From: Acidobacteriota bacterium
GTDB taxonomy: Bacteria; Acidobacteriota; UBA890; WLXD01
Direction of reading: 5' to 3'
DNA: 64,000 nt
Assembly: GCA_963666055.2 (NCBI GenBank)
Contig: CAXWPH010000011.1
Coordinates: 1-64,000 of the forward strand
In this document: positions 1 through 51,240 of the stretch, piece by piece
How positions within the stretch are numbered: the stretch's first letter is position 1
Layout of the letters: every line of letters starts with the position of its first letter
Program-made: the position numbers and the translations under genes
Notes under the pieces: generated by a model
What the model was told of the DNA's origin: nothing
The model's input: the letters and a program-made list of their open reading frames with translations, nothing else
The model's database searches: none

Positions 1-997
1 CAGCTAGTAGGGCCTCCTCGAACCAGTCGAGATTGATGTGGTGGTCATCGGCCAGAGCGATCCTCTCCGCAGCCTGCATGAAGCCGGCCGGTTCGCTAGC
101 GACGAGCCCGTTAAACTCAGCGAACGCGCCGTCTGTGACGTTCTGGAGAGTCCCGAAACCGTAGGCAAGAACTCCAACAAGGTCCGAGCGAGCGACTTCA
201 CCGGATTCAATGGTTAAAGCGGCTAACAAGACGTCAGCCACGTCGTCCAGAGAAACGATTGGTTCCAGTAGTGCCGCGAGTTCCTCATCCAAATCGCGGT
301 CTTGCCGCCCCGAAGTCCGCAGTTTGTCTACTACTGCGAGCCCTAATGCAAGTGTCAAGCCGTCATCCCGAAGGGAGTAGCGAGTAGGGTCGCCGGGAAT
401 CTCGTCTGGATCGGAGCCCCAACTCGGACCAGCCGCGGCCACTGTCGCGTCCGCGATGGACATCGCATTCTGGGCTGGTTCTTGGTACAGCCGAAGGAGT
501 CGGTCGAACTTCTCGACCAACTGCTCGAGGGGCGGCTCGTGCACGACCTGGAGGAGGGCGATGGGCCGTGCCATATGCCTAATCTCCTCGGGATCTCTCC
601 CTCGCTCGCTAAGACACTTGATTAGCTTCGCGAGTTCGATTGGCCCCAACGCCCGAAACGCCTTGTCGCTCTCCTGAAGTCGCCCGTGGAGCTCCTGCAT
701 CTCCTCCTTTGATGAGTCCGTCTGAATCGCCGCATAGACGATGAGACTCTCTTTCTGCATGGCGAGGCGGATGGACCATCCGATGAAGCCAAGCACGTTC
801 GCGACCATGAGAATCGCTACGCCCAGCCATCCAAGGGACGCAATCGACCCTACCAGCAGAAGAAGCTCGGCTACCCAGATCGCAGCTTCGGCCCGGACGA
901 AAGGTCGATGCGATTCAGACCGAGCCAAAGCAAAGCGAGCGCGAGCAGTACACTGGCTGCTTCGAGGACGATTTCCATTGACGTCAATCTCGAACAT
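1..997 (-). CDS. hypothetical membrane protein (cassette gene), runs off left edge
   Basis: Absent from the ORF track because it has no stop in the window. Manual translation gives a stop-free frame from ATG 997 to base 1 with a hydrophobic stretch (AIWVAELLLLVGSIASLGWLGVAILMVANVLGFIGW). An alternative start in another frame at 978 (MEIVLEAASVLLALALLWLG) suggests a frameshift near 900. Lies just downstream of attC 1097-1152. Confidence 0.6.
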   Translation of the reverse strand, partial: MFEIDVNGNRPRSSQCTARARFALARSESHRPFVRAEAAIWVAELLLLVGSIASLGWLGVAILMVANVLGFIGWSIRLAMQKESLIVYAAIQTDSSKEEMQELHGRLQESDKAFRALGPIELAKLIKCLSERGRDPEEIRHMARPIALLQVVHEPPLEQLVEKFDRLLRLYQEPAQNAMSIADATVAAAGPSWGSDPDEIPGDPTRYSLRDDGLTLALGLAVVDKLRTSGRQDRDLDEELAALLEPIVSLDDVADVLLAALTIESGEVARSDLVGVLAYGFGTLQNVTDGAFAEFNGLVASEPAGFMQAAERIALADDHHINLDWFEEALLA

Positions 998-1096
998 CAC
1001 GCCGGTGATCGCCAGTCCACCAGCAACGCTTCGATGGCCGATCTGGTTACTGAGGGCGATCACTCGAGGACAGGCTCGAATCGCCGTGCGCAGTAG

Positions 1097-1152
1097 GAGT
1101 AACGGCGCAGAGCTTCAGCTGCGGGTCCGTCAGCTGCTGGCTCCTGTTACGT
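1097..1152 (-). repeat. attC-like integron recombination site (short, 56 bp)
   Basis: Minus strand reads ACGTAAC-aggagccagcagctgacggacccgcagctgaagctctgcgcc-GTTACTC: R''/R' cores with inverted CAGCTG L boxes. The TAA stop of the upstream gene lies in R''. Confidence 0.75.
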
Positions 1153-1581
1153 GCCTATTCCGGTTGGGCATCTGCCGATACGCTCACCGCTGATCGATAG
1201 TTCGCTCGGCTCATTGCTCGACTTCTCGGCATTCTCACCGCGAGCCCAAATTGCCCATGACTGAAACGGAGGCAAGAAGAAGTAGCCTCCGACTGAATCG
1301 CCGACAGCGGTGTATGACCCCTTCGCAACCGCGGCGGCAGTAAGGAGACAAACGAGCGCCGCACGTTCGTCGTGATCTTGATTCGACGCAATCGTGCGAG
1401 CGAGGCCAGCAAAGCCCCCAAGATCGAGGGCGTGCAACAGCGGGCCGAAGAGCCCCTGGTTAAGACACTGATCGTAGAGCCAGTCGAACTTGGCGCCGCG
1501 GCGGAGTCGGGGCTTCTGGTTGGGCCTCCCCCGATTTCCCGGACACCTTTGGAAGCCCGATAATGGGCTCGGAGGTGAAGC

Positions 1582-1875
1582 ATGGGGTCACGACGGCGGT
1601 ACAGTCGCGAGTTCAAGATTGAGGCAGTGAGGATGGTGACGCAGCTGGGCCATCCGGTGTCTGAGGTGGCCCGGGATCTGGGTGTTGGCCGCGGCATGTT
1701 GACCAAGTGGCGCAAACAGCTCCAGGAGCAGGGGGTCACGGCGTTTCCGGGCGCGGGGAAGATGCCCGACCAGGACCTGGACGGGCAACAGCTACGGCGG
1801 GACCTGCGGCGAGTACGGCAGGAGCGCGACATTCTAAAAAAAGCGTTGGCGATCTTCTCGGAACGCCCGCGATGA
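1582..1875 (+). CDS. IS3 transposase OrfA (HTH)
   Basis: RRRYSREFKIEAVRMV..VARDLGV..ERDILKKALAIF; A7 slippery run at ~1836-1842. Confidence 0.93.
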   Translation: MGSRRRYSREFKIEAVRMVTQLGHPVSEVARDLGVGRGMLTKWRKQLQEQGVTAFPGAGKMPDQDLDGQQLRRDLRRVRQERDILKKALAIFSERPR

Positions 1876-2867
1876 AGTACCCGATCATCAAGCAACTGTC
1901 CGGCAAGTTCCCGGTGCGGCGGTTGTGCAAGATGCTCGAGGTGTCTCACGGCGGTTACTACGAGTGGCGAGGACGGGCACCGAGTCCGAGAGCGCGAGAA
2001 GATCGCCGTCTACGTGTGCAGATCAGAGCTGCATTCCGAGAGAGTCGCGACCGTTACGGAAGTCCGCGCATCCACAAGCAACTTCGGCAACGAGGGATCC
2101 GCTGCTCTCGCAAGCGGGTAGCTCGGCTGATGCGCCAGGAAGGACTTCGAGCTCGCCAACCCCGTCGGTTCCGGGTGACAACACGGCCCACACCTGGGCG
2201 GTCAGCGGCGCCCAACGTGCTGGCACGGCGCTTCACGGTGGATGCCGTGGACAGCGTCTGGGTGGGCGACCTGACATACCTGTGGACGCAGGAAGGATGC
2301 CTATACCTGGCCGTGCTGATGGATCTGTGCTCGCGACGGATCATCGGCTGGGCGGTGAGCGAGACGATGACGGACGATTTGACGCTGGCGGTCCTGGATC
2401 AGGCCTTGGAGCAACGCCGTCCCGGTTCCGGAGTGCTCCATCACAGCGACCGCGGCAGCCAGTACAGCAGCGACGATTACCTAGACAAGCTGCGTGACCG
2501 TGGCTTCACCATCAGCATGAGCAGGAAAGGAGACTGCTGGGATAACGCGCCGATGGAAAGTTTCTTCTCTACCCTGAAGTTCGAACTCGGTGGCTGCTTC
2601 AGTTCCCGGGCGGCGGCCCGAGCCGAGTTGTTCCACTACATCGAAGTGTTCTACAACCGGGCTCGCATGCACACCTCGATCGGACACCAGAGTCCGGCTC
2701 AGTTGGAGGCGGCAATGCGGCGGCCAGGCCAGAGCGGCCAATCAGCTGTGGAAGCTGACGCGCCCGTGGAAATCGACTCCCGATTTCCACCGTCGCTTGG
2801 ACAACGCTCCGCGTTGCCAACAGCTCCCACAGCCGCTAATACGACTACGACAATGGATCTTAACTAA
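1872..2867 (+). CDS. IS3 transposase OrfB (DDE integrase core)
   Basis: WVGDLTYL, HHSDRGSQY and DNAPMESFFSTLK motifs; ATGA overlap with the orfA stop. Confidence 0.95.
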   Translation: MKYPIIKQLSGKFPVRRLCKMLEVSHGGYYEWRGRAPSPRAREDRRLRVQIRAAFRESRDRYGSPRIHKQLRQRGIRCSRKRVARLMRQEGLRARQPRRFRVTTRPTPGRSAAPNVLARRFTVDAVDSVWVGDLTYLWTQEGCLYLAVLMDLCSRRIIGWAVSETMTDDLTLAVLDQALEQRRPGSGVLHHSDRGSQYSSDDYLDKLRDRGFTISMSRKGDCWDNAPMESFFSTLKFELGGCFSSRAAARAELFHYIEVFYNRARMHTSIGHQSPAQLEAAMRRPGQSGQSAVEADAPVEIDSRFPPSLGQRSALPTAPTAANTTTTMDLN

Positions 2868-3364
2868 GTGTCCGGGAAAGCGGGGCAAGGTCAGGTCGTA
2901 CGCCTCCTCGGGCAGCATCACCCCTAGGAATGCGTTCGGAAAGGCCTCCACCAGGTTCTTGGGGGCTCGAACGCGTGGGAATCCAACGGCAGTTTCGGAG
3001 TCTTGAGTGACGGCTGCCAGCTGATCCGCAGTCTGACTTCCGGCCTCACGCAGCTGCTGTCCAGTCCCCGGGACATGCGAAAGTCCGGGCTTGCACCGAC
3101 GCTGGAACTTCCCGAGTGTGAAGATTCGTTCGCAACTGCGTGGCTCCAGCGACGCTGCGTCCGGCAGAACCGGAGCGTCGATCGCGGTCACGTCCGCCAT
3201 AGGCTGCTCGAGAAGTACGCCCCGCCTGCATTCCCAGGTCGCGTCGGCACGATCGAGGGCAAGGAGTCCGGCGCGGAAATGTGCCACACCGGAGCTGAGA
3301 TCCCGAGACGAGAAACCAACGTCTACACCAATGAGTTCCAAGTTCGCTGTCCTGAGCGTTGTGC

Positions 3365-3480
3365 GCATAGCGGCGCAGAGCTTCAGCTGCGGGCGCGTCC
3401 AGCATCGTCGGCTTGGCGCGGGCCTTGCTCCGCTAGGACCGTGGCAAGAACGATCCATCAGCTGCTGGCTCACGTTAGAT
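3365..3480 (-). repeat. attC-like site (116 bp)
   Basis: Minus strand ATCTAAC-gtgagccagcagctgatgga...cgcccgcagctgaagctctgcgcc-GCTATGC. Ends nearly identical to attC 1097-1152; the next gene's ATG lies in R'. Confidence 0.8.
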
Positions 3481-3487
3481 GGCTTCC

Positions 3488-4122
3488 TCACCAAGCCTCT
3501 CTGTCTATGAGAACCTCCATCTGATCCGCCAAGTCCTTGGCTCGGTCGGCGATTGCCGTGTATAGGTCGTTTATATTTCGCTCTATGCGCCGCCTGTTCT
3601 CTTCCCCGACGGCCGGATCGAAGGTCATCAAATGATACTTCGCTGCTTCGTCAATCTGCTCATTCATGAACTGCAACTGGGACCGTATGGCCAGCAACTC
3701 CCGCTGGGTCGCAGCTGTGTAGGTGCCGAGGTAGGCAACTGAGAGTCCAGATACGGGAGCGTCACCTGGCGTAAAGATTTCCCGCGCGCCGTATCGGCAC
3801 GCCGCCGGGCACCGATCTGCTCGATGTCGGGGTCTGGGCGCCGCAGAAGGCGACTCAGAGCGTCGTGGATGTTGTCACCCTCTGGGGCCCAAGCGGCTAC
3901 GGTGTTTCGGACCCACTCCACTCGTTGTCGATCGAATGCTCCGGCAACCTTCGAGAGATCGTAGACGAGTGCGGCAAGCCGGTATCGACGATCCTGCAAC
4001 TCGACGCGGATGCCTGTTCGGACATCCCGCTTCGTCTTGGCGGTGGTGACTGCGGAGATGATGGCGTGGCTCCCCAGTCCGAGGATCCAGCCAACCAGAA
4101 CGAAAAGAAGTTCGGACCACAC
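3488..4122 (-). pseudogene. membrane-anchored hypothetical cassette gene, frameshifted near 3700-3730
   Basis: Two overlapping ORFs (3664-4122 and 3488-3697) fill the space between two attC sites; N-terminal TM segment LLFVLVGWILGLG. Confidence 0.65.
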
Positions 4123-4247
4123 AGTTTCTTCCGAGCCCGTCTAGTGGCGGGCAGCCTCCAGTTGCGGGCGCGGCCGGCGAAGCCAGGTTGGCGCGAGCGT
4201 TGCGCACGACGCAGCGCCTCATGACAACAGTATCCGTCGGTAGTGGG

Positions 4248-5125
4248 TCACTTTGAGATTGGATTGCCTTCGCTCCAGACTTCGCCGGTCGCTTCGGCAT
4301 GCTCCAGAAGCCGAACGATGTCGGAGATCTCCCACACGGTGCTCGCCACGCCTGCCTCCATTGCCGGGGTGACGCGCAGCGTTCGATGAATGCGGCAGAA
4401 GTTGTAGTGCATGAAGTGCAAGCTGACCGCGTGGGCCAGGTTCTCGACCTTCTTGCTGAATGCGTTCGTCAACCTGGTGAAGCGACGCATCGACATTCTC
4501 ATCGTCAAATTCGCTCTTTCGACGTAGGACGTGCTGATTAGCGCAGCGTCGGGCGAGCCGACCACGGCCAGCTTCTTGGTGCCGTTGCACTTCGCCGGGC
4601 TGTATCGCTTCTGCGGCTCCGGGTCAGCGCCATAGATCTTATGGAGCTGCGCGTAGTCGATCTCATGCGCGAACGCAGCCTCAACCGCTTCCACGTACAT
4701 TCGGTGACCGTCCGTCGTGAGCTGCACCCGATGCGACAGACGACCCGCTAGATCCTGCATGAAGGCAGTATCCGTAGCGAGATCACGCGGCCCGATGCGC
4801 CACGTCGGAACGATCTTGGTGTCCGCGCAGATCGACGTGAACGTCCACACGTCGCCAAAACCAAAGCGGCCGCGCTTGTCGTCGGGAACGTTCTTGGCCT
4901 TCGAGTAGCAGAAAGCCCCCAGATCTCGTCAGCCTCGATCCGCTTGCAGGGAAGGTCGCGCAGTACGGCGTCTTGGTAGGCAGCGCATACGGTGCCGAGA
5001 TCGACCAGCAGCTTGGTGACGGTGTTCTTGGAAACGCTAGTCATCCGGCAGGTGGCGCGGATCGAATTTCCTTCGACCAACGCGCTGACGATCTGCGTCC
5101 GCTTCTCGGTGCTTAGCTTGTTCAT
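4248..5125 (-). pseudogene. IS1-family DDE transposase, frameshifted at ~4915
   Basis: HTH LVEGNSIRATCRM, DEIW, LTTDG and STSYVERANLTMR..RFTRLTNAFSKK motifs. The frame breaks in TGGGGGCTTTCTGC (expected DEIW.FCY). Confidence 0.88.
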
Positions 5126-5135
5126 GGGAGACATT

Positions 5136-5222
5136 ATGCTTGACCGGTCATGAATAGTCAATGTGCTTGCTTAAGGCAAGCATCTTTTTTATACTTACCT
5201 TGTTGCTTGCAGTAAGCAAGCA
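5136..5222. promoter_or_regulatory. three TGCTTG..CAAGCA-type palindromes in the divergent promoter region
   Basis: ATGCTTGACCGGTCATGAAT (5136-5155), TGCTTGCTTAAGGCAAGCA (5164-5182), TGCTTGCAGTAAGCAAGCA (5204-5222). Confidence 0.65.
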
Positions 5223-5242
5223 CCGGACTAGGAGAACAGAAC

Positions 5243-6244
5243 GTGAAAAAGCAGGAACTGAAGAAACGCGCATCCATGGGTGGCAAGGCGAGAGCGGAGA
5301 AGCTGTCGCCAGAAGAGAGGTCCGAGGTCGCCCGTGCTGCTGCCGAGGCGCGACACGGAACCACGACGCCGAGAGCGCTCTGTGGAGCGCCCGACAAGCC
5401 GCTGAAGATAGGGAGCATCGAGATTGCCTGCTACGTCCTCGAAGACGGCACTCGTGTGCTGTCCCAGCGCAGCCTTCAAACCGGTGTCGGCATGTCCGTT
5501 AGCGGCGGCAAAAGCGGCGAGCAGCGGTTAGTCACTTTTCTGCGGTCCATGAAGTCTAAAGGCTTAGAGGTCAGTGACTTAGTGGCGCGCATCCGGAAGC
5601 CCATTTATTTCGTTCCGCCCGGCGGCGGCCGGTCCGCCTACGGCTACGAGGCGACCGTACTTCCGGACCTATGCACCGCAATCTTGGACGCCCGAGACAA
5701 GGGACTACTCCAGCCGCAGCAAATCCATCTGGCCAAGCAATGTGAGATTCTCATCCGCGGATTTGCTCACGTCGGGATTATCGCGCTAGTTGACGAAGCG
5801 ACCGGCTACCAGGACTTAAGGCAGCGCAATGCTCTGGCCGAGATCTTGGAAGCGTTCATTTCCGACGAACTGCACAAATGGGTTCTCACGTTTCCACCAG
5901 ACTTCTACAAGGAGATGTTTCGCTTGTGGGGGTGGAACTACTACGCAGGCTCTGTGAAACGCCCTGCAGTGGTCGGCAAGCTGACGGACCATCTCGTCTA
6001 CGAGCGACTAGCACCCGGCGTGCTGGAAGAGCTTCGACACCAAACTCCACGGAACGACAAAGGGCACCTCAAGACACATCTCCACCGGAGACTAACTCGC
6101 GAAGTTGGACATCCGCGTCTTCGAGAACACTTAGCCGCGGTCGTCGCCCTCATGAAAGCTTCGCCTGACAAGGAATGGTTCATGCGGGCGATCAACGAGG
6201 CGCTGCCCAAGTACCACGAGACTATGCGCTTACCGCTCGGATAA
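5243..6244 (+). CDS. P63C domain protein with N-terminal basic GGKARA motif
   Basis: CYVLEDGTRVLS, AHVGIIALVDEATGYQ, FPPDFYKEMFRL and LVYERLAPGVLEEL are typical of phage P63C proteins. Confidence 0.88.
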   Translation: MKKQELKKRASMGGKARAEKLSPEERSEVARAAAEARHGTTTPRALCGAPDKPLKIGSIEIACYVLEDGTRVLSQRSLQTGVGMSVSGGKSGEQRLVTFLRSMKSKGLEVSDLVARIRKPIYFVPPGGGRSAYGYEATVLPDLCTAILDARDKGLLQPQQIHLAKQCEILIRGFAHVGIIALVDEATGYQDLRQRNALAEILEAFISDELHKWVLTFPPDFYKEMFRLWGWNYYAGSVKRPAVVGKLTDHLVYERLAPGVLEELRHQTPRNDKGHLKTHLHRRLTREVGHPRLREHLAAVVALMKASPDKEWFMRAINEALPKYHETMRLPLG

Positions 6245-6246
6245 CC

Positions 6247-6504
6247 TCAGTCATCGGCTTGACGCTTCCAACGCGCCTCAGCCGCCTTCTTGGCGATCTC
6301 GCTGCGACGCGCCTTCGTCAGTTTCTTCGCCCGCGCTGGGCCACCCTTGAGCCCGCCGAGTCGCCCAAGAAGCTTTGCGGCTTCGCTGCGTAGAGCATCA
6401 TCATCCTGCTGATGATCATCATCGGGTTCGTCCTCCGTAGCCTGCGCTACGATCTGCGCGGCGAGGACGTTGGGGTCAGCGTTGTTGCTTGAGCGTTTAG
6501 GCAT
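6247..6504 (-). CDS. small basic protein (GGLKGGPARAKKL..RRSEIAKKAAEARW)
   Basis: 85-aa ORF, GGAG RBS upstream, convergent with P63C; lies inside the IS. Confidence 0.8.
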   Translation of the reverse strand: MPKRSSNNADPNVLAAQIVAQATEDEPDDDHQQDDDALRSEAAKLLGRLGGLKGGPARAKKLTKARRSEIAKKAAEARWKRQADD

Positions 6505-6609
6505 GACTCCATTGTCGCGAACGCACGTCCTGTTCGCAAGGTGTGGTCAACCGCCGCCAGATTCAAACTGACCCACCACCTATCCGTCAGCTGCTGCTCG
6601 ATTGCAGTG

Positions 6610-6974
6610 GGGCCGATCATCGGAATGAGTTCCCCTCCCTCTGCTCTCGAAAACGTCACACAGCGGCGGGCCTACTCAGGCAAGCCCGCGTTGCCCCGCT
6701 GCGCTATCGCCCGATGGTTGAGGCGCGGTATTCGTCGTGGTCGGTGTCGATCAGGAGGGCAGCGACTTCGGATACAACGAGGCGAGCCCCCATTTGGTCG
6801 GCACAGCCCTGTGCGCTGGAGACGTACCGGAGATCCTTCGACATAAGACGAAGCGAACTTGTGGCGGGGGCAAGAGAGCTGGCTGCCGATACGGTGCGTG
6901 ATCTCTTCTCTCGGTTCCACTTCGAGCCTGGTGAGCAGCCCGTCAGAGAGTGGCAGGCTGAGTTGAGGCCTTAA
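6610..6974 (+). pseudogene. C-terminal remnant of an unknown gene
   Basis: Protein-like tail (ELVAGARELAADTVRDLFSRFHFEP..WQAEL) without a credible start. Confidence 0.35.
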
Positions 6975-7160
6975 CCGCGCTTCGCTAAGGTCCGCTATGG
7001 AATCTGGGGTTGAAGACGGCTCGGGTGGGGAGGCTTCCGGAGCCCACGATTCCCGAGAGGATCCGAATTGCGGCATACACGTGGCATTTCGGCCAGACGC
7101 AGAAAGCCCCGGTGACCAGCACTGGGATGTAAGTTGCTGAGCCACCGGGACTTACGCCAG

Positions 7161-7210
7161 TAGCGGGGGCAGGATTTGAACCTGCGACCTTCGGGTTATG
7201 AGCCCGACGA
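7161..7210 (-). tRNA. 3' fragment of tRNA-fMet(CAT), probable att site
   Basis: TCGTCGGGCTCATAACCCGAAGGTCGCAGGTTCAAATCCTGCCCCCGCTA: GGG/CCC anticodon stem and T arm present; D arm and 5' acceptor strand absent. Confidence 0.88.
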
Positions 7211-23898: not shown

Positions 23899-25263
23899 AT
23901 GAGTGACGACGTCCAGGAGTACATCGGAGATGGGCTGCAGCGCTTTACAGACGAGATCTTCGAATTCCTACGGATCCCCTCGGTAAGCGCCAAGTCGGAC
24001 CACAACGCCGACACCCGCCGTGCAGCCGAGTGGCTACAGGCGAAGCTGGTTGACGCGGGACTCGAGGCCGAGGTCATCAATACGCCCGGTCATCCCATCG
24101 TGTTGGGAGAATGGCGAGGGGCCGGTGAAGATGCCCCTACGATCCTCGTTTACGGTCACTACGACGTGCAGCCTGCCGAACCTTTGGAGCTCTGGGATTC
24201 TCCACCTTTCGAACCGGAGTTCCGGGAGGGTCGTCTCTACGCCCGTGGCTCCGCCGACGACAAGGGGCAGCTCTACCTTCACGTGAAGGCAGCCGAAGCG
24301 CATCTGAAGGCCGGCGGCGGGCTACCGGTGAATCTCATCATCTTGGCTGAGGGTGAGGAGGAGGTGGGCTCGCAAAACCTGGTGCCCTTCGTCGAGGCGA
24401 ACAGCGGCCGGTTGGCGTGCGACGGCGTCGTCATCTCAGATACCGCCATGTTCGCACCGGGGCTGCCGTGTCTCCTCTTTTCGCTACGCGGCCTCGCCTA
24501 CTGTGAGATCCACGTGGACGGCCCATCCAGCGATCTGCATTCGGGCAGCTACGGCGGGGCGGTGGTCAACCCCGCCATGGCCCTCTCGCAGATCCTGGCC
24601 ACTCTGTTCGATGACGACGGCCGCATTGCCATCGATGGCTTCTACGATAACGTCCTCGATTGGGACGACGAAACGCGGGCTGGCATCCGCAGCCTGCCCT
24701 TCGACGAAGGGGAGTTCGCGGCGTCGGTCGGAGCTACTCCCGCCGCCGGCGAGAAGGCGTATTCGGTCCTCGAGAGGCTCTGGACCCGGCCAGCCTGCGA
24801 CGTCAACGGGATCCTTTCGGGCTACACCGGCGAAGGCGCCAAGACCGTGCTTCCAGGAAAGGCCATGGCCAAAGTGAGCTTCCGCCTGGTAGCGGACCAG
24901 GATCCCGAGCGCGTCTACGAGCTGGTGCGAGCGCATGTCGCCAAGGTCGCCCCTGCGGGCGTCACGGTTCGGGTCGAGGAGCTCCACGGTGGCATGCCCT
25001 GGCGAGCCCACCTCAGCGGCAAGCTCGAGAAGGCTGCGACGGCAGCCTTGATGAAAGCCTTCGGTGCGGCACCCGTGCTGGCCGGCGAGGGCGGAAGCAT
25101 ACCCATCGTCAGTGAGTTCGAACGGGTTTTAGGCGCGCCCGCGCTGCTCGTCGGCTTTTCCCTACCAGGGGCGAATGAGCATGCGCCGAACGAGTGGTTC
25201 CCCCAGGAGAACATCGAGAAGGGTATCCGCGCCCTGGCCTATCTCTACGAGGAGCTCTGCTAG
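23899..25263 (+). CDS. M20 family dipeptidase
   Basis: YGHYDVQP, ARGSADDKGQ, EGEEEVGS, DLHSG and HAPNE. Confidence 0.95.
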   Translation: MSDDVQEYIGDGLQRFTDEIFEFLRIPSVSAKSDHNADTRRAAEWLQAKLVDAGLEAEVINTPGHPIVLGEWRGAGEDAPTILVYGHYDVQPAEPLELWDSPPFEPEFREGRLYARGSADDKGQLYLHVKAAEAHLKAGGGLPVNLIILAEGEEEVGSQNLVPFVEANSGRLACDGVVISDTAMFAPGLPCLLFSLRGLAYCEIHVDGPSSDLHSGSYGGAVVNPAMALSQILATLFDDDGRIAIDGFYDNVLDWDDETRAGIRSLPFDEGEFAASVGATPAAGEKAYSVLERLWTRPACDVNGILSGYTGEGAKTVLPGKAMAKVSFRLVADQDPERVYELVRAHVAKVAPAGVTVRVEELHGGMPWRAHLSGKLEKAATAALMKAFGAAPVLAGEGGSIPIVSEFERVLGAPALLVGFSLPGANEHAPNEWFPQENIEKGIRALAYLYEELC

Positions 25264-25434
25264 CGGCCGTGGTGGAGATCGGTCTCAGCCTGCTGGCGGT
25301 CGGTCAGAGCAGCTCCGAGGCCCACCCACGACTGGCTCTTCCCGCTGGCGAGGAAGCGTTACAGGGCCGATCCATGGCGGGCAGGATTTATTGATGATTA
25401 CAGCAACAGCTAGCACCACGCAGAGGAGGCGACT

Positions 25435-26421
25435 GTGAAGCTCTCAATCCAAGAACTGAGAGACCTGTCCCAGCAAGCAATTCTCAAGTATGGCTACTCG
25501 GAAGACGACACCCGCATCATATTAGACATGCTTATGTATGCTCAACTGAGAGGCAATGATCAAGGCATCGTCAAGTTGATTGGCGAAGGAATGCCGAAAC
25601 ATGACAAGGCACGACCACCAACTATCGAAACTGAAACTCCAGCTACGGCCATAATCAATGCCAACTATTCCATGGAGGCTATCGCCATGGAACAAGCCGT
25701 AGCGATGGTTATAGCCAAAGCCAAAGACATGGGTATAGCAATAGTAGGGACACATACGGGCCATGGGTCCTCCGGCGCCATCGGTTACTGGTCACGAAAG
25801 ATTGCGGACGCAGGTTTAGTTGGTATTACCATGTCTAGTTACCCTTACGCGATGGTACCTCCTAGTGGCTCTTATGAGCCCTTGTTTTGTACCAATCCAA
25901 TAGCTTGGGGTATTCCTACTGAACATGAACCTATTGTCTTAGACATGTCATCATCAGGCATCTCCTTTTTTGGTCTGCTAGAGGCGAAAACACAAGGAGC
26001 CCAAGTAGCTGAAGGGCTTGGCTATGACAAAGCCGGGAACGAGACAACAAATCCTGCTGAAATAATGGAAGGGGCGATAAGACCGTTTGATAAAGGATTC
26101 AAGGGCGCCGGGCTTGCCTTGGTGGTTCAGATCATAGGAGGTGCGTTGGTAGGTGGGGATTTCCTCAATAAAAGCGACAATGATGGAAACGTCGTAATCG
26201 CAATTAACCCCGACGCCATGATTGGAATGCAGCGCTTTATAGAAGAAACGACCAAAATGACCAAGGCAATAAAGCAAGCAAAGAGACTCGAAGGAGTCGA
26301 GGAAGTCATGATTCCAGGGGAGCGCGGCGACAAGATCAGATCACGGAGACTTGACAGTGATGAAATCGAAGTAGAAGACAACTTATTGAATAGCTTGAGA
26401 AGTTTCGTGGAAGGCAACTGA
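25435..26421 (+). CDS. Ldh_2 (type-2 malate/L-lactate dehydrogenase-like) oxidoreductase, AT-richer than flanks
   Basis: TNPIAWGIP, VLDMSSS, KGAGL and IPGERG; GAGGAGG RBS. Confidence 0.9.
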   Translation: MKLSIQELRDLSQQAILKYGYSEDDTRIILDMLMYAQLRGNDQGIVKLIGEGMPKHDKARPPTIETETPATAIINANYSMEAIAMEQAVAMVIAKAKDMGIAIVGTHTGHGSSGAIGYWSRKIADAGLVGITMSSYPYAMVPPSGSYEPLFCTNPIAWGIPTEHEPIVLDMSSSGISFFGLLEAKTQGAQVAEGLGYDKAGNETTNPAEIMEGAIRPFDKGFKGAGLALVVQIIGGALVGGDFLNKSDNDGNVVIAINPDAMIGMQRFIEETTKMTKAIKQAKRLEGVEEVMIPGERGDKIRSRRLDSDEIEVEDNLLNSLRSFVEGN

Positions 26422-26582
26422 ACGCCCCACGTCCGTGAGCCCAAACTGTCTCCCCTGTTTCCATCCCAGGTCGACGACAAACTCGATGAGCTGAAGGAGT
26501 TCGGAGCGAGAATCATCAGACACGGAGGGGAACGACCTGGATTTCACCAACAAGCGGGTTCCGGTTACGGGCGGCAGCGGGG

Positions 26583-26610
26583 GGCACTGTCAAGTTAACT
26601 TGACAATGCC
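26583..26610. terminator. palindrome between convergent genes
   Basis: GGCAC-TGTCAAGTTAACTTGACA-ATGCC; perfect 18-bp core at 26588-26605. Confidence 0.45.
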
Positions 26611-26633
26611 TGCCCCCTCCCTCGACGCGCCGC

Positions 26634-27745
26634 TCAGTGGGGCTGCAACACCCAGTTGTTGCTCGTTGGCAACCGCGGGGCACCGGAGGCAATCACCGCC
26701 GGCTCGTCACTATCCAGAATGTAGAGCATCCAGTTACCGCCGGCAGCATGACGCAAGAGCACATCGGCCTTATCGTCGCCGTTGAAATCGACGACTGAGG
26801 CGATCTTGAATCCAGTGTCGGGGCTCATCTCAAGGCTCCCTTCGCTCAGGATCTTGTGTCCATCGAGTGAATATACGTACCAACTCCCATCGGCGTGGCG
26901 GAGCGACGCGTCGGCCTTGCCGTCGCCGTTGAAGTCGGCGTGGGACTCGAGCGTGTAGTCCGTATCCGTCGACATACGGGGCGCAGTCTTCTTGCGGACG
27001 CGTGCACCGTCGAGTAGATAAAGCAACCAGCTGCCCTTCCTGTCGCGCATCAGCACGTCGGTGAAGTCGTCGCCGTCGAAGTCAGCAATGGCCTGGACCG
27101 TGTACCTGGAACTCCTGACGATCTTTGGCTCGGCGGACTGGTAGCCGTCTGATGTGTTGCTTGCGTTCAGCAGCCACGTGCCGTCGGCTCGCTGCAGGAG
27201 GAAGTCCGCGCGGTCGTCGGCATTGAAGTCGGCCGTGCTCACAAGCCTGTCGGTTGGGTGTGTGCCGAGCGAGAGGCGCAGCTCTGACATCACTGTCTGT
27301 CCAGCAAGTCGATAGAGCAGCCAGCTGCCGTCGACCGAATTGCGCAGCAGCACGTCTGCATTGCCGTCGCGGTTGAAGTCGGCGGTCGAGACGACCTCGA
27401 ACTCGGGGTCGGTGGTTAGATCAACGGCACCCTTCGAGGTGATCTTCTTCCCTACCAGGGTCGCCAGGAGCCAGCCGCCGGCCACAGCGGATCCGCTCGC
27501 CTGCTGTGGGAGTGCTCTGCTCGTATCGCGAAGTAGAAGGTCCGGCTCGAGGTCGCCGTCGAAGTCACTTCGGGAGACGACTTCGAAAGCTGCGTTCCGG
27601 GTTGGGCCGACCGGGCCCTTCTGCGTCATTTTCACTGCACCGCCCTCGAATCGGAGCCGGTACGATCGCCAACGGCGGGTGCGAGCGTTCCGCAGTAGGA
27701 CGGGCTTGATCGTTTCGTGGACAGGTGGCGCTGGATGCCTGAGTG
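26634..27745 (-). pseudogene. FG-GAP/VCBS-repeat protein, C-terminal remnant
   Basis: Repeated (A)DFNGDGxADVLLR..GSW units; the 5' end runs into the DUF2182 gene with no own start. Confidence 0.75.
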
Positions 27746-31936: not shown

Positions 31937-32165
31937 CTAGTGGGAGCGCGGGAACCCCAGATCGACGCCGCGCTGAGACGGGTCGGCCCAGCGAGTCGTC
32001 ACGACCTTCGGTCGCGTGTAGAAGTGCACACCTTCTGGACCGTAGATCGAACACGCGCCGAACAGCGAGCTCTTCCAACCCCCGAACGAGTAATAGGCCA
32101 TCGGTACGGGTATCGGCACGTTGATGCCCACCATGCCCACCTGAATCTCCTCCAGGTCGGCGAGA
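31937..32165 (-). pseudogene. mmsA: mmsA C-terminal remnant (high GC)
   Basis: [42 protein letters not shown]. Confidence 0.85.
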
Positions 32166-32318
32166 GGACCGTAGAAAGAGATACCCATGCAGCTGAGGGC
32201 TCTACCGATCCGTCCTCACGTACCGCGCCACGTCAAACCTGCCGGTCGTATTGCTGCTGCAGCATATATGAAACGTCAACGAAACGAGATTACCTGACCA
32301 ACGCCACATCTTAGGAGC

Positions 32319-33902
32319 TCAGTCGTTCGACCCAACATCGATGGTTCCGTCCCAGGTATTGACCTTGTCCGAGGCCATGTCTTCCGTAAACCAGGTAGTG
32401 GTGACACACTTTAGTTCGGTAAAGAACCTTACACCGTCCTTTCCCATGGTATGTAAATCACCAAAGAATGATTTCTTCTGTCCAGTGAAACCAAAGATTC
32501 CCAGAGGGACTGGAATACCAACGTTCACACCGACCATGCCACCATCAGTTCGTTTGGCAAACTCACGGGCGTAATAGCCGCTTTGAGTATAGATCGACGA
32601 ACCATTGGCAAACTCACTGTTGTTCATAATGGCCAGGCCTTCTTCAAAGTCTTGGATGCGTTTTATGCAGATAACAGGCCCGAAGACTTCATCCCGCCCA
32701 ACCGTCATATCTTCAGTCACGTGATCAAAGATGGTTGGTCCAACATAAAAGCCACTGTCATAACCCGGCACGTCAGGGTTGCGGCCATCAAGAACGAGTG
32801 TAGCCCCTTCGTCAACACCCGTTTGAATCCAATCAGTGACGTACTTCAAATGGCCCTTGTTCACTACCGGTCCAAGGCCAGTGCTTCGTTCATAGGCCGG
32901 TCCCAATGTCAATTCGGAGCAGAGTCGCACCAGAGATTCAACCAACCTGTCGGCAATACTCTCTTCAACACAAATAACCGGAAGCGCCATGCACCGTTGG
33001 CCGGCACACCCGCAGAACGCGTTGACAATTCCTCTAGCTGTCCTTTCCAGGACACAGTCTTTCAAGACCAGGGCGTGGTTCTTGGCTTCAGTCAGAGCTT
33101 GAACCCGTTTGCCATTGGCGGCGGCGGTCGAGTAAATATGCTGGCCGACTTTGGTTGAGCCAACAAAAGTAACACCAGCGATATCAGGATGCTCGAGTAG
33201 CAGTTCCGCTTCATTCCGGCTGGTGGTTACTATGTTCAAAACGCCTTTGGGGAGCCCGGCCTCATACCATAGTTCCGTGATTCGCATTGATGTTTGAGGA
33301 ACAAAACTAGCGGCTTTCAGTACGAAACAATTTCCCGCGGCGATACAAATCGGAGCCATCCAACCCTGGGGGATCATTGCGGGAAAATTCCAGGGGGCGA
33401 TTCCAGCAAAAACACCCACTGGATGATGATACATAGTCGTATCATAACCCGTGCTGCAATCCATCAGGGATTCCCCTTTCATGAGATGCGGCATACCACA
33501 GGCAAAGTCGACGACTTCAATTACTTTTAGGATGTCTCCCTTTGCCTCTTCCCAAGCCTTTCCCATTTCTCGGGCGAGAATCTCAGTCAACCCATCCAGA
33601 TGTTGTTCGAGTAGTGTCTTGAGTTTGAACAAGATCTGAACACGTCGGACCACAGGGGTATTAGACCATCCCGGATAAGCGGCCTTGGCTGCCGCGACTG
33701 CTGAGTTCACTTCTTCTGCTGTGCATTGTGGAGCCTGAGCAATGATCTCGCCCGTGGATGGGTTGTAGCAGTCCATATAAGTCTCGGTGCTGGATGTAAG
33801 CCACTCACCATTCACGCAATATTTTAGTTGCTTGGGTTGTTCTGCCAGTGATGTGAGGCTCTCACCGTCGGCGCAATACGTTGAAGTAGCTTGTTCTGAC
33901 AT
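32319..33902 (-). CDS. mmsA: CoA-acylating (methyl)malonate-semialdehyde dehydrogenase, AT-richer xenolog
   Basis: PWNFP, FVGST, AKNH, GCAGQRCMA, EVFGPV and GMVGVNVGIPVP; GGAGG RBS. Confidence 0.92.
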   Translation of the reverse strand: MSEQATSTYCADGESLTSLAEQPKQLKYCVNGEWLTSSTETYMDCYNPSTGEIIAQAPQCTAEEVNSAVAAAKAAYPGWSNTPVVRRVQILFKLKTLLEQHLDGLTEILAREMGKAWEEAKGDILKVIEVVDFACGMPHLMKGESLMDCSTGYDTTMYHHPVGVFAGIAPWNFPAMIPQGWMAPICIAAGNCFVLKAASFVPQTSMRITELWYEAGLPKGVLNIVTTSRNEAELLLEHPDIAGVTFVGSTKVGQHIYSTAAANGKRVQALTEAKNHALVLKDCVLERTARGIVNAFCGCAGQRCMALPVICVEESIADRLVESLVRLCSELTLGPAYERSTGLGPVVNKGHLKYVTDWIQTGVDEGATLVLDGRNPDVPGYDSGFYVGPTIFDHVTEDMTVGRDEVFGPVICIKRIQDFEEGLAIMNNSEFANGSSIYTQSGYYAREFAKRTDGGMVGVNVGIPVPLGIFGFTGQKKSFFGDLHTMGKDGVRFFTELKCVTTTWFTEDMASDKVNTWDGTIDVGSND

Positions 33903-33930
33903 TATTAACCTCCAAGAGGACGGTATTTAG

Positions 33931-34102
33931 CAGGGTGCTGAAAAACTCTGATGGGTCTGGTGGGTGGGTCTTGCTGGCGAGATCAAGGAAGAGCGACGAG
34001 GGCGATGCCAGGGTCATCGTCGAGGAGCTCTAACGCTGAGATCGCCAGCAAGACCCACCCGCCCAACGGGTTACAGACCCACCAGAGTTCTTCAGCACCC
34101 TG
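33931..34102. mobile_element. 172-bp MITE-like palindromic element
   Basis: Ends CAGGGTGCTGAAAAACTCTG / CAGAGTTCTTCAGCACCCTG; internal IR GGGTGGGTCTTGCTGGCGA / TCGCCAGCAAGACCCACCC; flanked by TTAG and CTAG. Confidence 0.75.
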
Positions 34103-48994: not shown

Positions 48995-49879
48995 TCAGAC
49001 GCGCTTCAGCGACTGCTCGACGCGTTCTGCAGCAGCGATCAACGATTGCGGCAGGTGCATGCCAGGAATCTGGGGTGCGTCGCGGCGCGTCAACACGGAC
49101 CCGCCGACAAATAGCTGCGACTGCAGTCGGCTGCCCACCAGCGCGCGGGCGCAACGGTTGAGAACGCCGGGACTGGCGCGGCGCGTACCGATGATGCAGA
49201 TGGCTTGCGGTTTCACCTGCATTGCCGCCTGAATGAGGTCGTGGCATGGAACGAAACGGCCCAGGTACATGACCGGAAGATCGACGAGGCGCAACAGCAG
49301 CGCAAGCGACATGGCCGCGACGTCGTACTCGTCATCTTCCACGCACGTCAGCATCACGACTGGGCCCGGATCCTCCGGTTGACCGAGTCTGACGAGCTCG
49401 GCGGCAATCTCGAAGCGAATCAACTCGTGCGTGAAGCGCACGTGCGCCAGCGTCGTTCGCGCCTCACCCCAGTACCGGGTCAGGCGGCTCAGCGCCGGAA
49501 AGACGACCCGTTCCATGGTGGGTGCCCAGCCAGTGGAGAAAACCGAGTCGTGTACGATCCGCGACACCCAGCCGCCATCGAGATCGAGCGCCTTCTGTAC
49601 GAGCAGATCCACGAGCGGGTGGGCGCGCTTGGGGGTAACGGGCTCCGGAGCCTCCGCCGACCCCTCCGTGAGGACGACTTCGGCGGCGTCGGAGGCGCGG
49701 ACGCCGGAATTGATCAGCACCGACATGCGCCGGATAACCATCAGGTCGGCGTCGTCGAACTGCCGCTGACCCTTCGCGGACCGCTCTGGGCGCGGGACTC
49801 CGTAGCGTCGTTCCCAGGTCCGAAGGCGGCTCTCGTTGACGCCGGTCGCCATCGCCGCACCCTTGATCGAGTAGTTCAT
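48995..49879 (-). CDS. MerR-family regulator with CarH/LitR-like (B12-binding-fold) domains
   Basis: YSIK..LRTWERRYG..PERSAKGQRQF HTH, then a helical bundle and Rossmann domain (YLG..VP, FVGG). Confidence 0.85.
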   Translation of the reverse strand: MNYSIKGAAMATGVNESRLRTWERRYGVPRPERSAKGQRQFDDADLMVIRRMSVLINSGVRASDAAEVVLTEGSAEAPEPVTPKRAHPLVDLLVQKALDLDGGWVSRIVHDSVFSTGWAPTMERVVFPALSRLTRYWGEARTTLAHVRFTHELIRFEIAAELVRLGQPEDPGPVVMLTCVEDDEYDVAAMSLALLLRLVDLPVMYLGRFVPCHDLIQAAMQVKPQAICIIGTRRASPGVLNRCARALVGSRLQSQLFVGGSVLTRRDAPQIPGMHLPQSLIAAAERVEQSLKRV

Positions 49880-49898
49880 CACCACCACAGCGTAATTC

Positions 49899-49987
49899 TT
49901 GCGCAAAAATTGCGCAACGGGGGTTGTTTTCTTCTGCAGATGCTTTGTATAACTAAAGAATCACATTTGTACAATCTTTGGAAAAGT
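49899..49987. promoter_or_regulatory. AT-rich divergent promoter with 11-bp-phased repeats
   Basis: TTTGTATAA (49944), TTTGTACAA (49966), TTTGGAAAA (49977); TTGCGCAA twice at 49899-49917. Confidence 0.5.
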
Positions 49988-49998
49988 GAGTAGAGTCG

Positions 49999-50352
49999 AT
50001 GGCTACGATCACAGCCGAGTTTCTCAAGGGCCAGAGTAGGGAAGAGATTCTCGGTCTCGCGTCTGCAGAAATCGAAGAATACGATGTCGATTCCTGCCGG
50101 CAGCTGTACCTCTCGATGATCGAGCTGGCCGTGCATGACTACCGATTCCTTCAACGCATGAGGGAACAGGCACAGACTTCACGCTACGATCGCAAGAAGC
50201 TGCGCCAGATGACCGAGGATGGCGACCCGCGCGACTTCTTCGACAGCGGCTGGTTCGAGGAGGTCTGCGACTATGTCGGCGTGACACCGACGCTCATCCG
50301 TGAGCGCCTCGAGCAGGAGGACGGCGAGATCGTCATCGCCCAAGTCGCCTAA
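49999..50352 (+). CDS. hypothetical protein, 117 aa
   Basis: Good codon bias, divergent from the MerR gene, followed by a hairpin. Confidence 0.75.
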   Translation: MATITAEFLKGQSREEILGLASAEIEEYDVDSCRQLYLSMIELAVHDYRFLQRMREQAQTSRYDRKKLRQMTEDGDPRDFFDSGWFEEVCDYVGVTPTLIRERLEQEDGEIVIAQVA

Positions 50353-50374
50353 CCGCTACCTGATCTGTCGAGCC

Positions 50375-50408
50375 AACGCCCCGGGACGCCTCAACGTCTC
50401 GGGGCGTT
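50375..50408 (+). terminator. hairpin, probable terminator
   Basis: AACGCCCCGGGACG-cctcaa-CGTCTCGGGGCGTT. Confidence 0.65.
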
Positions 50409-50679
50409 GTCCGTTTCCGACCGTCTCTCCTGATCGCCGCGTCGCTGGTCCGCATCCGCCATCTTCCAGGCAAGCCTCGCCGCCTTGGCGCGCCAGGATC
50501 TCCGCGCGAGTGGGCTCATCTGGTGTCTTGGGCGGTTCTCCTTCGATCGCGGTTGGGAACATGAAACCAAACCGTGGCAGCCCCGTCATTAGGTGTACCT
50601 AGCGGAATCGGCGGCCGGTGCCCCCGCAAACGCTGCAACAAACGACATCGGATTTCTATCAAGCCACGAGGAGACGGCA

Positions 50680-51240
50680 ATGAATCGTAGATTGATCGCG
50701 CTGACAGCCGCAGTCATAGTGCTGACCGGTTCAGCCGCAGTCGTACAGGCACAGGAGAGCTCCTGGATCCACATTCGTGTCGATGAAGCCGACGGCGTCA
50801 AGGTCAACGTCAACCTGCCGATGTCGCTAGTCGAGATAGCGATGGAGGTCGCCCAGGATCATGTCTTCGGCGACCACCACGGCATCGATATCGGCCGCCA
50901 TCACGACCTGGAGCTCGCCGATCTGCGGCGCATGTGGGAAGAGCTTCGCCTGGCTGGTGACGCCGAGTACGTCGTCGTGGACGATGACGATGAGCACGTC
51001 CGCATCTATCGCCAGGACGACACCGTCCACATCGAGGTCGACGACAACGACGGCGACGAGAAGGTCCGTTTGCAGATACCGTTCTCGGTAGTCGACGTGC
51101 TGCTCGAGGGCGAGGGTGATGAGCTCAACCTGGCCGCGGCGCTACGCGAAATGGCCAACGCCAACGACGGCCAGATCCTCCAGGTGCAGGACGGCGACAC
51201 CGACGTCAACATCTGGATCGACACGAACCCGCAGGGCTAG
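50680..51240 (+). CDS. secreted hypothetical protein
   Basis: GAGGAG RBS, signal peptide, and two VxVxLP/IP repeat units. Confidence 0.8.
   Translation: MNRRLIALTAAVIVLTGSAAVVQAQESSWIHIRVDEADGVKVNVNLPMSLVEIAMEVAQDHVFGDHHGIDIGRHHDLELADLRRMWEELRLAGDAEYVVVDDDDEHVRIYRQDDTVHIEVDDNDGDEKVRLQIPFSVVDVLLEGEGDELNLAAALREMANANDGQILQVQDGDTDVNIWIDTNPQG

Follow-up and report, generated by a model that had tools for sequence, protein, structure and literature searches.

We describe the left end of a 64,000-nucleotide stretch of DNA (hereafter the window), with which contig C11 (CAXWPH010000011.1) begins in the genome of an Acidobacteriota bacterium (GCA_963666055.2; here G000, 5.7 Mb in 15 contigs). This end very probably carries an attC site cluster that has no integron-integrase (CALIN), an eroding array of at least two gene cassettes with no neighbouring integrase. 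The cassettes were likely captured by the chromosomal integron system of the lineage. The array is an ordinary CALIN, a known type of element from which it does not differ in kind. Its left, downstream side coincides with the first base of the contig, and the array may extend further.

As defined by Cury et al. 2016, who counted 279 of them, a CALIN comprises two attC sites within 4 kb and no intI (PMC4889954). Scored with our own covariance model, the window sites attC1 and attC2 lie on the same (minus) strand and 2.2 kb apart, which places at least two attC sites within less than 4 kb. The cassette genes are all on the minus strand, and both a cassette with a DUF429-like nuclease gene and its neighbour, cassette 3, hold a single gene between an R' box and a complementary R'' box. 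The window lacks the intI and attI adjoining the array that a complete integron would have.

The attC sites

Three sites, one of them split, lie along the array:

1097-1152, minus strand: attC1, short form of 56 bp, with the GTT/AAC core kept and non-canonical outer R' bases (ACTC); covariance model score 50.4 bits, E 3.8e-11
3365-3480, minus strand: attC2, long form of 116 bp, R' core GCT in place of GTT; covariance model score 40.9 bits, E 1.4e-8
4139-4238, minus strand: right part of attC3, with L' and a degenerate R' (ACTAGAC); identified by alignment
6581 to about 6612, minus strand: left part of attC3, L'' kept and R'' lost; identified by alignment, half-site score 17.5 against a background maximum of 12.9

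A preliminary description of this DNA had reported three imperfect palindromes here, and their coordinates agree with the sequence. A stop codon inside R'' of attC1 (ACGTAAC, 1152-1146, with TAA at 1149-1147) and a start codon inside R' of attC2 (GCTATGC, with ATG at 3368) are likewise where it had put them; R' of attC1 is GTTACTC (1103-1097). It had also read attC3 as a split site. Homology to sites of relatives supports this, and we add two things it did not mention: the gap is an IS1-family element, and R'' is gone as well.

The 19-nt motif GCAGCTGAAGCTCTGCGCC occurs in exactly two copies in the window, where 0.06 are expected by chance, with one further, unrelated match at three mismatches. 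R' and R'' agree at 6/9 bases in both complete window cassettes and differ by transitions only, against 8-9/9 bases in seven cassettes of G019, a genome of the same genus. This pattern fits drift from what would have been genuine cassette ends.

Folded as the bottom strand, attC1 has an R-box pairing probability of about 0.67. That of attC2, where GCT lies opposite AAC, is about 0.01, compared with 0.3-0.9 in three intact relatives. Among the right arms listed for the subfamily, 8/10 retain GTT, the exceptions being attC2 and one site of genome G025. The empty-site allele of attC3 folds no better than shuffled sequences (z -0.09), and with no AAC in the alignment the site has no recognizable R''. 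In the assays with IntI1 described in PMC2811028, recombination falls from 2.2e-3 to 6e-6 when core position 2 is altered without compensation, and GCT with compensation costs about 6-fold. Given these values and the R-box and fold states of the sites, attC2 is likely impaired in recombination and attC3 is likely dead.

A side observation concerns the degenerate R'' boxes. CCACTGCA replaces R'' (..CTAAC) at 6603-6612 and at L139:5735-5750 (contig C32 of genome G018), two unrelated degenerate sites of the subfamily, possibly by chance. An Rfam scan returned nothing in the array region except a tRNA fragment, described below.

Related sites and arrays

Our covariance model, which is distinct from that of IntegronFinder, was built from 20 aligned attC sites from outside the window with the textbook attC structure. 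Its covariation is 0.291, against 0.087 when shuffled, and 87% of cells are paired, against 20-37% when the structure is slid. Five matches occur in the window at E up to 1; attC1 and attC2 lead them, and the other three score at most 14.2 bits. Matches at two of the three sites bear out the attC identity that had been proposed for the palindromes.

attC sites are marked by an L''/L' stem, by bases that stay extrahelical on the R''-L'' arm, and by a central spacer without pairing (PMC2727003). A structure with two extrahelical positions has covariation support in the family, and attC1 and attC2 fit it. On the bottom strand the first of these bases is C, G being usual, and the adjoining pair is mismatched in 11 of the 20 training sites.

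Independently of the model, attC2 and both parts of attC3 align over their full length with long sites of three genomes (G016, G019 and G008). Model sites are present in 13/26 genomes of the order, and the left-arm motif of the window in 8/26, G000 included. In G019 the intI gene scores 350 bits, above the TIGR02249 cut-off, and the array begins about 170 bp past its stop codon; three sites of that array belong to the window subfamily and have GTTAGGC cores. All three window attC sites have homologues in the intI-linked array of a relative. G000 itself has a second, better-preserved CALIN at C15:773819-780907 (L030) with six model-scoring attC sites, all of them training sites. Copies of the family in this C15 array and in the intI-linked G019 integron sit between co-oriented single genes, as expected from the preliminary description. 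Stray sites or half-sites occur in G000 on contigs C3, C8 and C15 (half-sites at C8:2947 and C15:1034664). The C15 CALIN is preceded by a truncated IS3 copy and holds part of a cassette that it shares with the first cassette of G019.

A two-arm pattern found one match in metagenomes, a canonical attC. The exact 19-nt motif, searched in one genome per species, gave seven matches with none in an attC context, and we regard these as chance.

The integrase, its platform and a tRNA scar

An integrase gene is expected upstream (right) of the array in classical and reverse layouts alike; on the downstream side the contig breaks off. As previously described, no intI lies to the right of the array, and a tRNA fragment is found there instead. 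Nor does any intI lie elsewhere on C11 (0/29 PF00589 and 0/23 TIGR02249 matches of the genome). The interval 6610-7050 gave no protein relative in one search.

7049-7210, minus strand: 3' half of a tRNA-fMet gene (7210-7160) with about 110 bp beside it; Rfam tRNA score 34.5 bits, 93% over 162 bp to C14:334194-334355

The stretch of about 110 bp beside the fragment matches the sequence that follows the intact copy of tRNA-fMet. Thus, 7049-7210 is likely an island att scar, located where intI would be expected. The permease gene next to the scar has a deletion of about 350 bp relative to three relatives, whose permease adjoins no such fragment. The region has therefore been rearranged, since the permease is shortened and placed beside the tRNA fragment, unlike in these relatives.

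The sole IntI-like match in G000 is at C10:50422-50736. It scores 149 bits (cut-off 265), contains one TAG and lacks about 530 bp compared with G019; judged by its sequence, the only intI of this genome is a deleted remnant. It occupies the locus of the G019 platform, where a peptidase gene, a MazEF-like toxin-antitoxin pair, intI and the cassettes lie on the same strand. The intI gene is truncated differently in all three genus genomes examined, namely G000, G019 (first approximately 41 model positions absent) and G020. We also observe that a reverse-type integron recurs at a fixed locus of the genus, at G019:C8:1206890-1215181 (L053/L054), in G000 on C10 at about 49,200-50,740 (L060) and in G020 (L140). 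The attC subfamily in common is our one basis for proposing that the window array may descend from this reverse-type platform.

As a further observation on the scar, G000 holds ten 3'-half fragments of tRNA-fMet besides one intact gene, most with related island-type arms. The others are at C7:130098, C7:13071, C14:493156, C15:481222, C10:20357, C15:898251, C2:327793, C5:65846 and C15:351987. Only some adjoin an integrase gene, and in three cases another tRNA-like fragment follows after about 200 bp. Several such fragments also occur in G018, G019 and G020. The pattern resembles recurrent movement of islands, with rearrangement, at a single tRNA.

The DUF429-like nuclease cassette

2894-3368, minus strand: 5' half of the DUF429-like gene, its ATG inside R' of attC2; 51% to P0004 residues 13-167
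1147-1517, minus strand: 3' half of the same gene, its TAA inside R'' of attC1; 50% to P0004 residues 170-280
1521-2893, plus strand: IS3-family insertion sequence (IS), 1,373 bp, with a 3-bp target duplication GGT (1518-1520/2894-2896); NF033516 score 347 bits; multi-copy in the genome

The DUF429-like gene extends from 3368 to 1147 and is interrupted by the IS3 element at 1521-2893; it is uninterrupted in three of the four sequencing runs compared below. The gene and its family had been recognized in the preliminary description, which missed the element splitting it. Its protein has 158 relatives, several named as DUF429 or RNase H-like nucleases, and two of those listed have PF04250. The window gene has the conserved acidic residues D16, D64 and E141 and an HxxxAA motif in common with eight full-length relatives. 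An RNase H-fold nuclease is its predicted product, in keeping with the treatment of DUF429/PF04250 among predicted RNase H-like nucleases by Majorek et al. 2014 (PMC3985635). The 5' half alone gave no Pfam match at E 0.001. The substitutions listed in the gene across runs, at 1196 and 1232, are both missense.

Integron cassettes have been reported as a source of phage-defence genes (bioRxiv 10.1101/2024.07.02.601719), and the preliminary description had noted cassettes as enriched in defence and toxin genes. For no window cassette is an identity as a defence gene supported. The one relevant result is a weak match of the 5' half to PADLOC PDC-S44, a candidate system (E 0.0039); three of three full-length relatives tested match it at E 7e-6 to 2e-12. 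A defence role for this protein is plausible. The more specific proposal, that the cassette would be a stand-alone anti-phage nuclease of the reverse-type integron system in an uncultured lineage, with IS3 setting on and off states in populations, we consider doubtful. If true, an RNase H-fold family reported not to be mobile would thereby gain a function.

The DUF429 alignment matched only G000 in a phylum sample of 401 genomes. Searches for a cassette context around relatives of the cargo genes found none on viral contigs and three distant matches on plasmids. Titles and abstract openings of the literature matches listed, which mostly concern DUF4297, contain no link between DUF429 and integrons, and supplementary cassette lists of defence papers may include DUF429.

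Cassette 3 and the leftmost chimera

3488-4122, minus strand: cassette 3, protein of about 210 amino acids (aa) with an N-terminal membrane segment; frameshift near 3700-3730, open reading frames (ORFs) 4122-3664 and 3697-3488
2-400, minus strand: internal fragment of a gene for an ATPase-like protein of about 1,530 aa, matching family residues of about 520-657; runs off the contig end
401-978, minus strand: broken gene for an N-terminal-membrane protein of about 212 aa, ATG at 978; frameshift, deletion, and stop codon lost at the fusion

Two cassette proteins had previously been described as membrane-anchored. This stands for cassette 3, whose protein has Atlas look-alikes of 120, 212 and 213 aa without a Pfam family and no family match in profile scans. 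The second, ORF 2-1063, is chimeric, joining two broken genes in frame, and its status as a cassette is unsupported.

The right-hand member of the chimera has a 1-bp frameshift near 888 and an 18-codon in-frame deletion near 450. In a tblastn search with P0121, it matches residues 1-31 in one frame and 31-211 in another. Weak PhageMin_Tail matches were obtained for relatives of its protein, and P0121 matched only G000 among 401 genomes. Compared with the window, the four runs have no indel in this gene or in cassette 3; thus, the frameshifts at 888 and in cassette 3 are real.

The left-hand fragment is 77% to P0122 over query 179-354, with many matches of 1,500-1,550 aa over query 220-353. For this family we obtained no PDB or NCBIfam match and no Pfam match above cut-off, P0134 giving only a sub-threshold AAA_16 match. 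An N-terminal LmuA match was present in one of five long members scanned, outside the part present in the window. No other piece of the gene occurs elsewhere in the genome. We note the family as a possible uncharacterized defence family, which might be Avs-like.

In runs X2, X3 and X5, positions 1-987 are on separate contigs at a depth of about 1.5-2.4x that of the next piece. Thus, this segment has a second context, and its boundary is at 987 and not at the attC1 crossover. That boundary argues against a leftmost gene moved cleanly as a cassette.

Insertion sequences

4239-6580, no strand assigned: IS1-family passenger element, 2,342 bp, with 18-bp terminal inverted repeats and an 8-bp target duplication TATCCGTC
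5125-4248, minus strand: transposase gene of the IS1 element, frameshifted near 4917
5243-6244, plus strand: P63C-domain passenger gene of the IS1 element
6504-6247, minus strand: small basic ORF of the IS1 element

The decay proposed in the preliminary description is confirmed, and with two IS, frameshifts and deletions it is more advanced than described there. P0271, a protein from the databases, spans the empty attC3 site with the joint 4230>6581 and carries another deletion. A promoter scan detected no cassette promoter; it returned one site, where 1.2 are expected, ahead of the IS1 transposase gene.

Two side observations concern these elements. IS3 lies in or beside cassette DNA in three of eight own-genome copies inspected (the window, C15:1034644 and C15:773240) and at G018:C32:8893. 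At C2:907-8566, G000 has three copies of a related IS1-family element, head to tail and with the transposase frame intact, repeated with a period of 2,555 bp and joined via an 8-bp spacer at a contig start, which may be tandem amplification or an assembly effect.

Alleles among strains

Among 24 runs listed, 12 contain at least half of the words of positions 1-1500, and four runs from three studies (X1, X2, X3 and X5) were compared as contigs. X1 matches the window with both IS present and may be its source. X2 has IS1 and is without IS3, the shorter flank of its joint being 30 letters. X3 and X5 are without either, and have an inversion of 3394-3968 through attC2 and cassette 3; in X5 all of this is on one contig of 2,400 nt. 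The empty-site joint of IS3 (1517>2894) is thus found in 3/4 runs, and that of IS1 (4230>6581) in 2/4. The inversion, which comes from two studies, has only weak microhomology at its ends and destroys attC2.

No attC-to-attC excision joint is present among the 15 of 21 joints listed, in contigs that drop rare variants. The first 3 kb of C11 have no overlap with other contig ends, so no continuation of the array was found there. Away from the array, the stretches 25000-27000 and 32000-34000 have a GC content of 51-55%, compared with about 64%, and are possibly foreign DNA.

Proposed history and alternatives

We propose that IntI recombination at G/TT points would have assembled the cassettes, as R'/R'' complementarity and the overlaps with start and stop codons suggest. 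The block would then have separated from its platform, either through rearrangement at the tRNA-fMet att scar or close to it, or through insertion at a secondary site; both routes are described in PMC4889954 and bioRxiv 10.1101/2022.09.11.507474. With no integrase, and no cassette promoter detected, the R boxes may have been released from selection and drifted. IS insertions, deletions and the inversion would then have accumulated differently among strains. For excision to occur now, an IntI would have to arrive from outside, and the reaction would probably be inefficient, because only attC1 retains a paired GTT/AAC core.

Several points weigh against a decaying CALIN derived from the chromosomal integron. 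The scores of attC1 and attC2 are inflated, as six of the 20 training sites are members of the window subfamily located by means of patterns taken from the window, and the split attC3 has no covariance model match. No attI was found, and the array stops at the contig end 1.1 kb from attC1, its full extent being unseen. The DUF429 gene is uninterrupted in 3/4 runs, and thus not all cargo is dead. Finally, an origin by splitting from the C10 platform and one by secondary-site insertion are not separable here.

The array could instead be a live cassette reservoir in which non-GTT cores are recombined by IntI in trans and the DUF429 cassette is excised and moved. attC1 does retain its core and stem, and the GCT of attC2 gives a G-T wobble on the bottom strand, not a true mismatch. 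Core position 2 tolerates compensated changes, at the cost of the roughly 6-fold drop reported for GCT in PMC2811028, and mobilization of CALIN cassettes in trans is among the suggestions of Cury et al. (PMC4889954). However, the much larger drop for an uncompensated position-2 change in the same assays, the near absence of R-box pairing in attC2, the lack of an excision joint among those listed, the truncated intI copies of the genus and the inversion that destroys attC2 in two runs all make a live reservoir improbable.

Some IS110-family elements and group II introns target attC sites. The IS1-family passenger element might likewise do so specifically, as its insertion point within attC3 is 4 bp away from the L'' arm. 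Among the 17 of 29 related elements with a locatable end, however, no flank rises above the 95th percentile of background (highest 9.7 versus 9.9), in a test that takes one flank per element and would miss the window's own degenerate right flank (8.2). The covariance model found one site in the 29 loci of related elements, about 370 bp from the element end, and the C2 copies in G000 are outside attC sites. Specific targeting is thus very improbable.

That the palindromes are chance or repetitive extragenic palindrome (REP)-like repeats, or the lesions assembly errors, might be suspected from the position of the array at a contig start, two frameshifts at short homopolymers and the seven exact motif matches in other species that are not attC sites, but this is scarcely credible in view of the model matches, the full-length homology to intI-linked sites, and contigs from four runs of three studies that span, free of gaps, the chimera together with the 888 and cassette-3 frameshifts (and, in X1 and X2, the transposase frameshift), which rule out assembly error for the frameshifts and the chimera.

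Comparison with known systems

As a decaying CALIN, the window array is a well-resolved example of cassette-array loss, with three haplotypes across studies. Additionally, a DUF429-like nuclease in cassette form, naturally uninterrupted in some strains, provides one testable candidate. In the portion of Majorek et al. that treats this family, its genes are deemed unlikely to be mobile (PMC3985635), whereas the window copy is an integron cassette.

The reverse integron, in which intI and cassettes share one direction (as outlined in PMC7691350), has the layout of the genus platform, which has the same attC subfamily. Its remains are found in G000 on C10 and in G020. The window itself has neither intI nor attI and represents, at most, a product detached from a platform of this kind.

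Insertion at secondary attG sites, as presented in bioRxiv 10.1101/2022.09.11.507474 together with the arrays termed SALIN, offers a further comparison. The last R' of the window array, GTTACTC, fits the GWT consensus and not GTTRRRY, and it is followed by DNA whose status as a cassette is unsupported. However, GWT is too common for a diagnosis, and no empty site was seen.

The closest likeness is to the CALINs of PMC4889954. The part of that work on such clusters likewise reports cassettes of unknown function, IS insertions and an intI pseudogene elsewhere in the genome. Compared with other CALINs, the window array is small, and its decay can be traced across strains.

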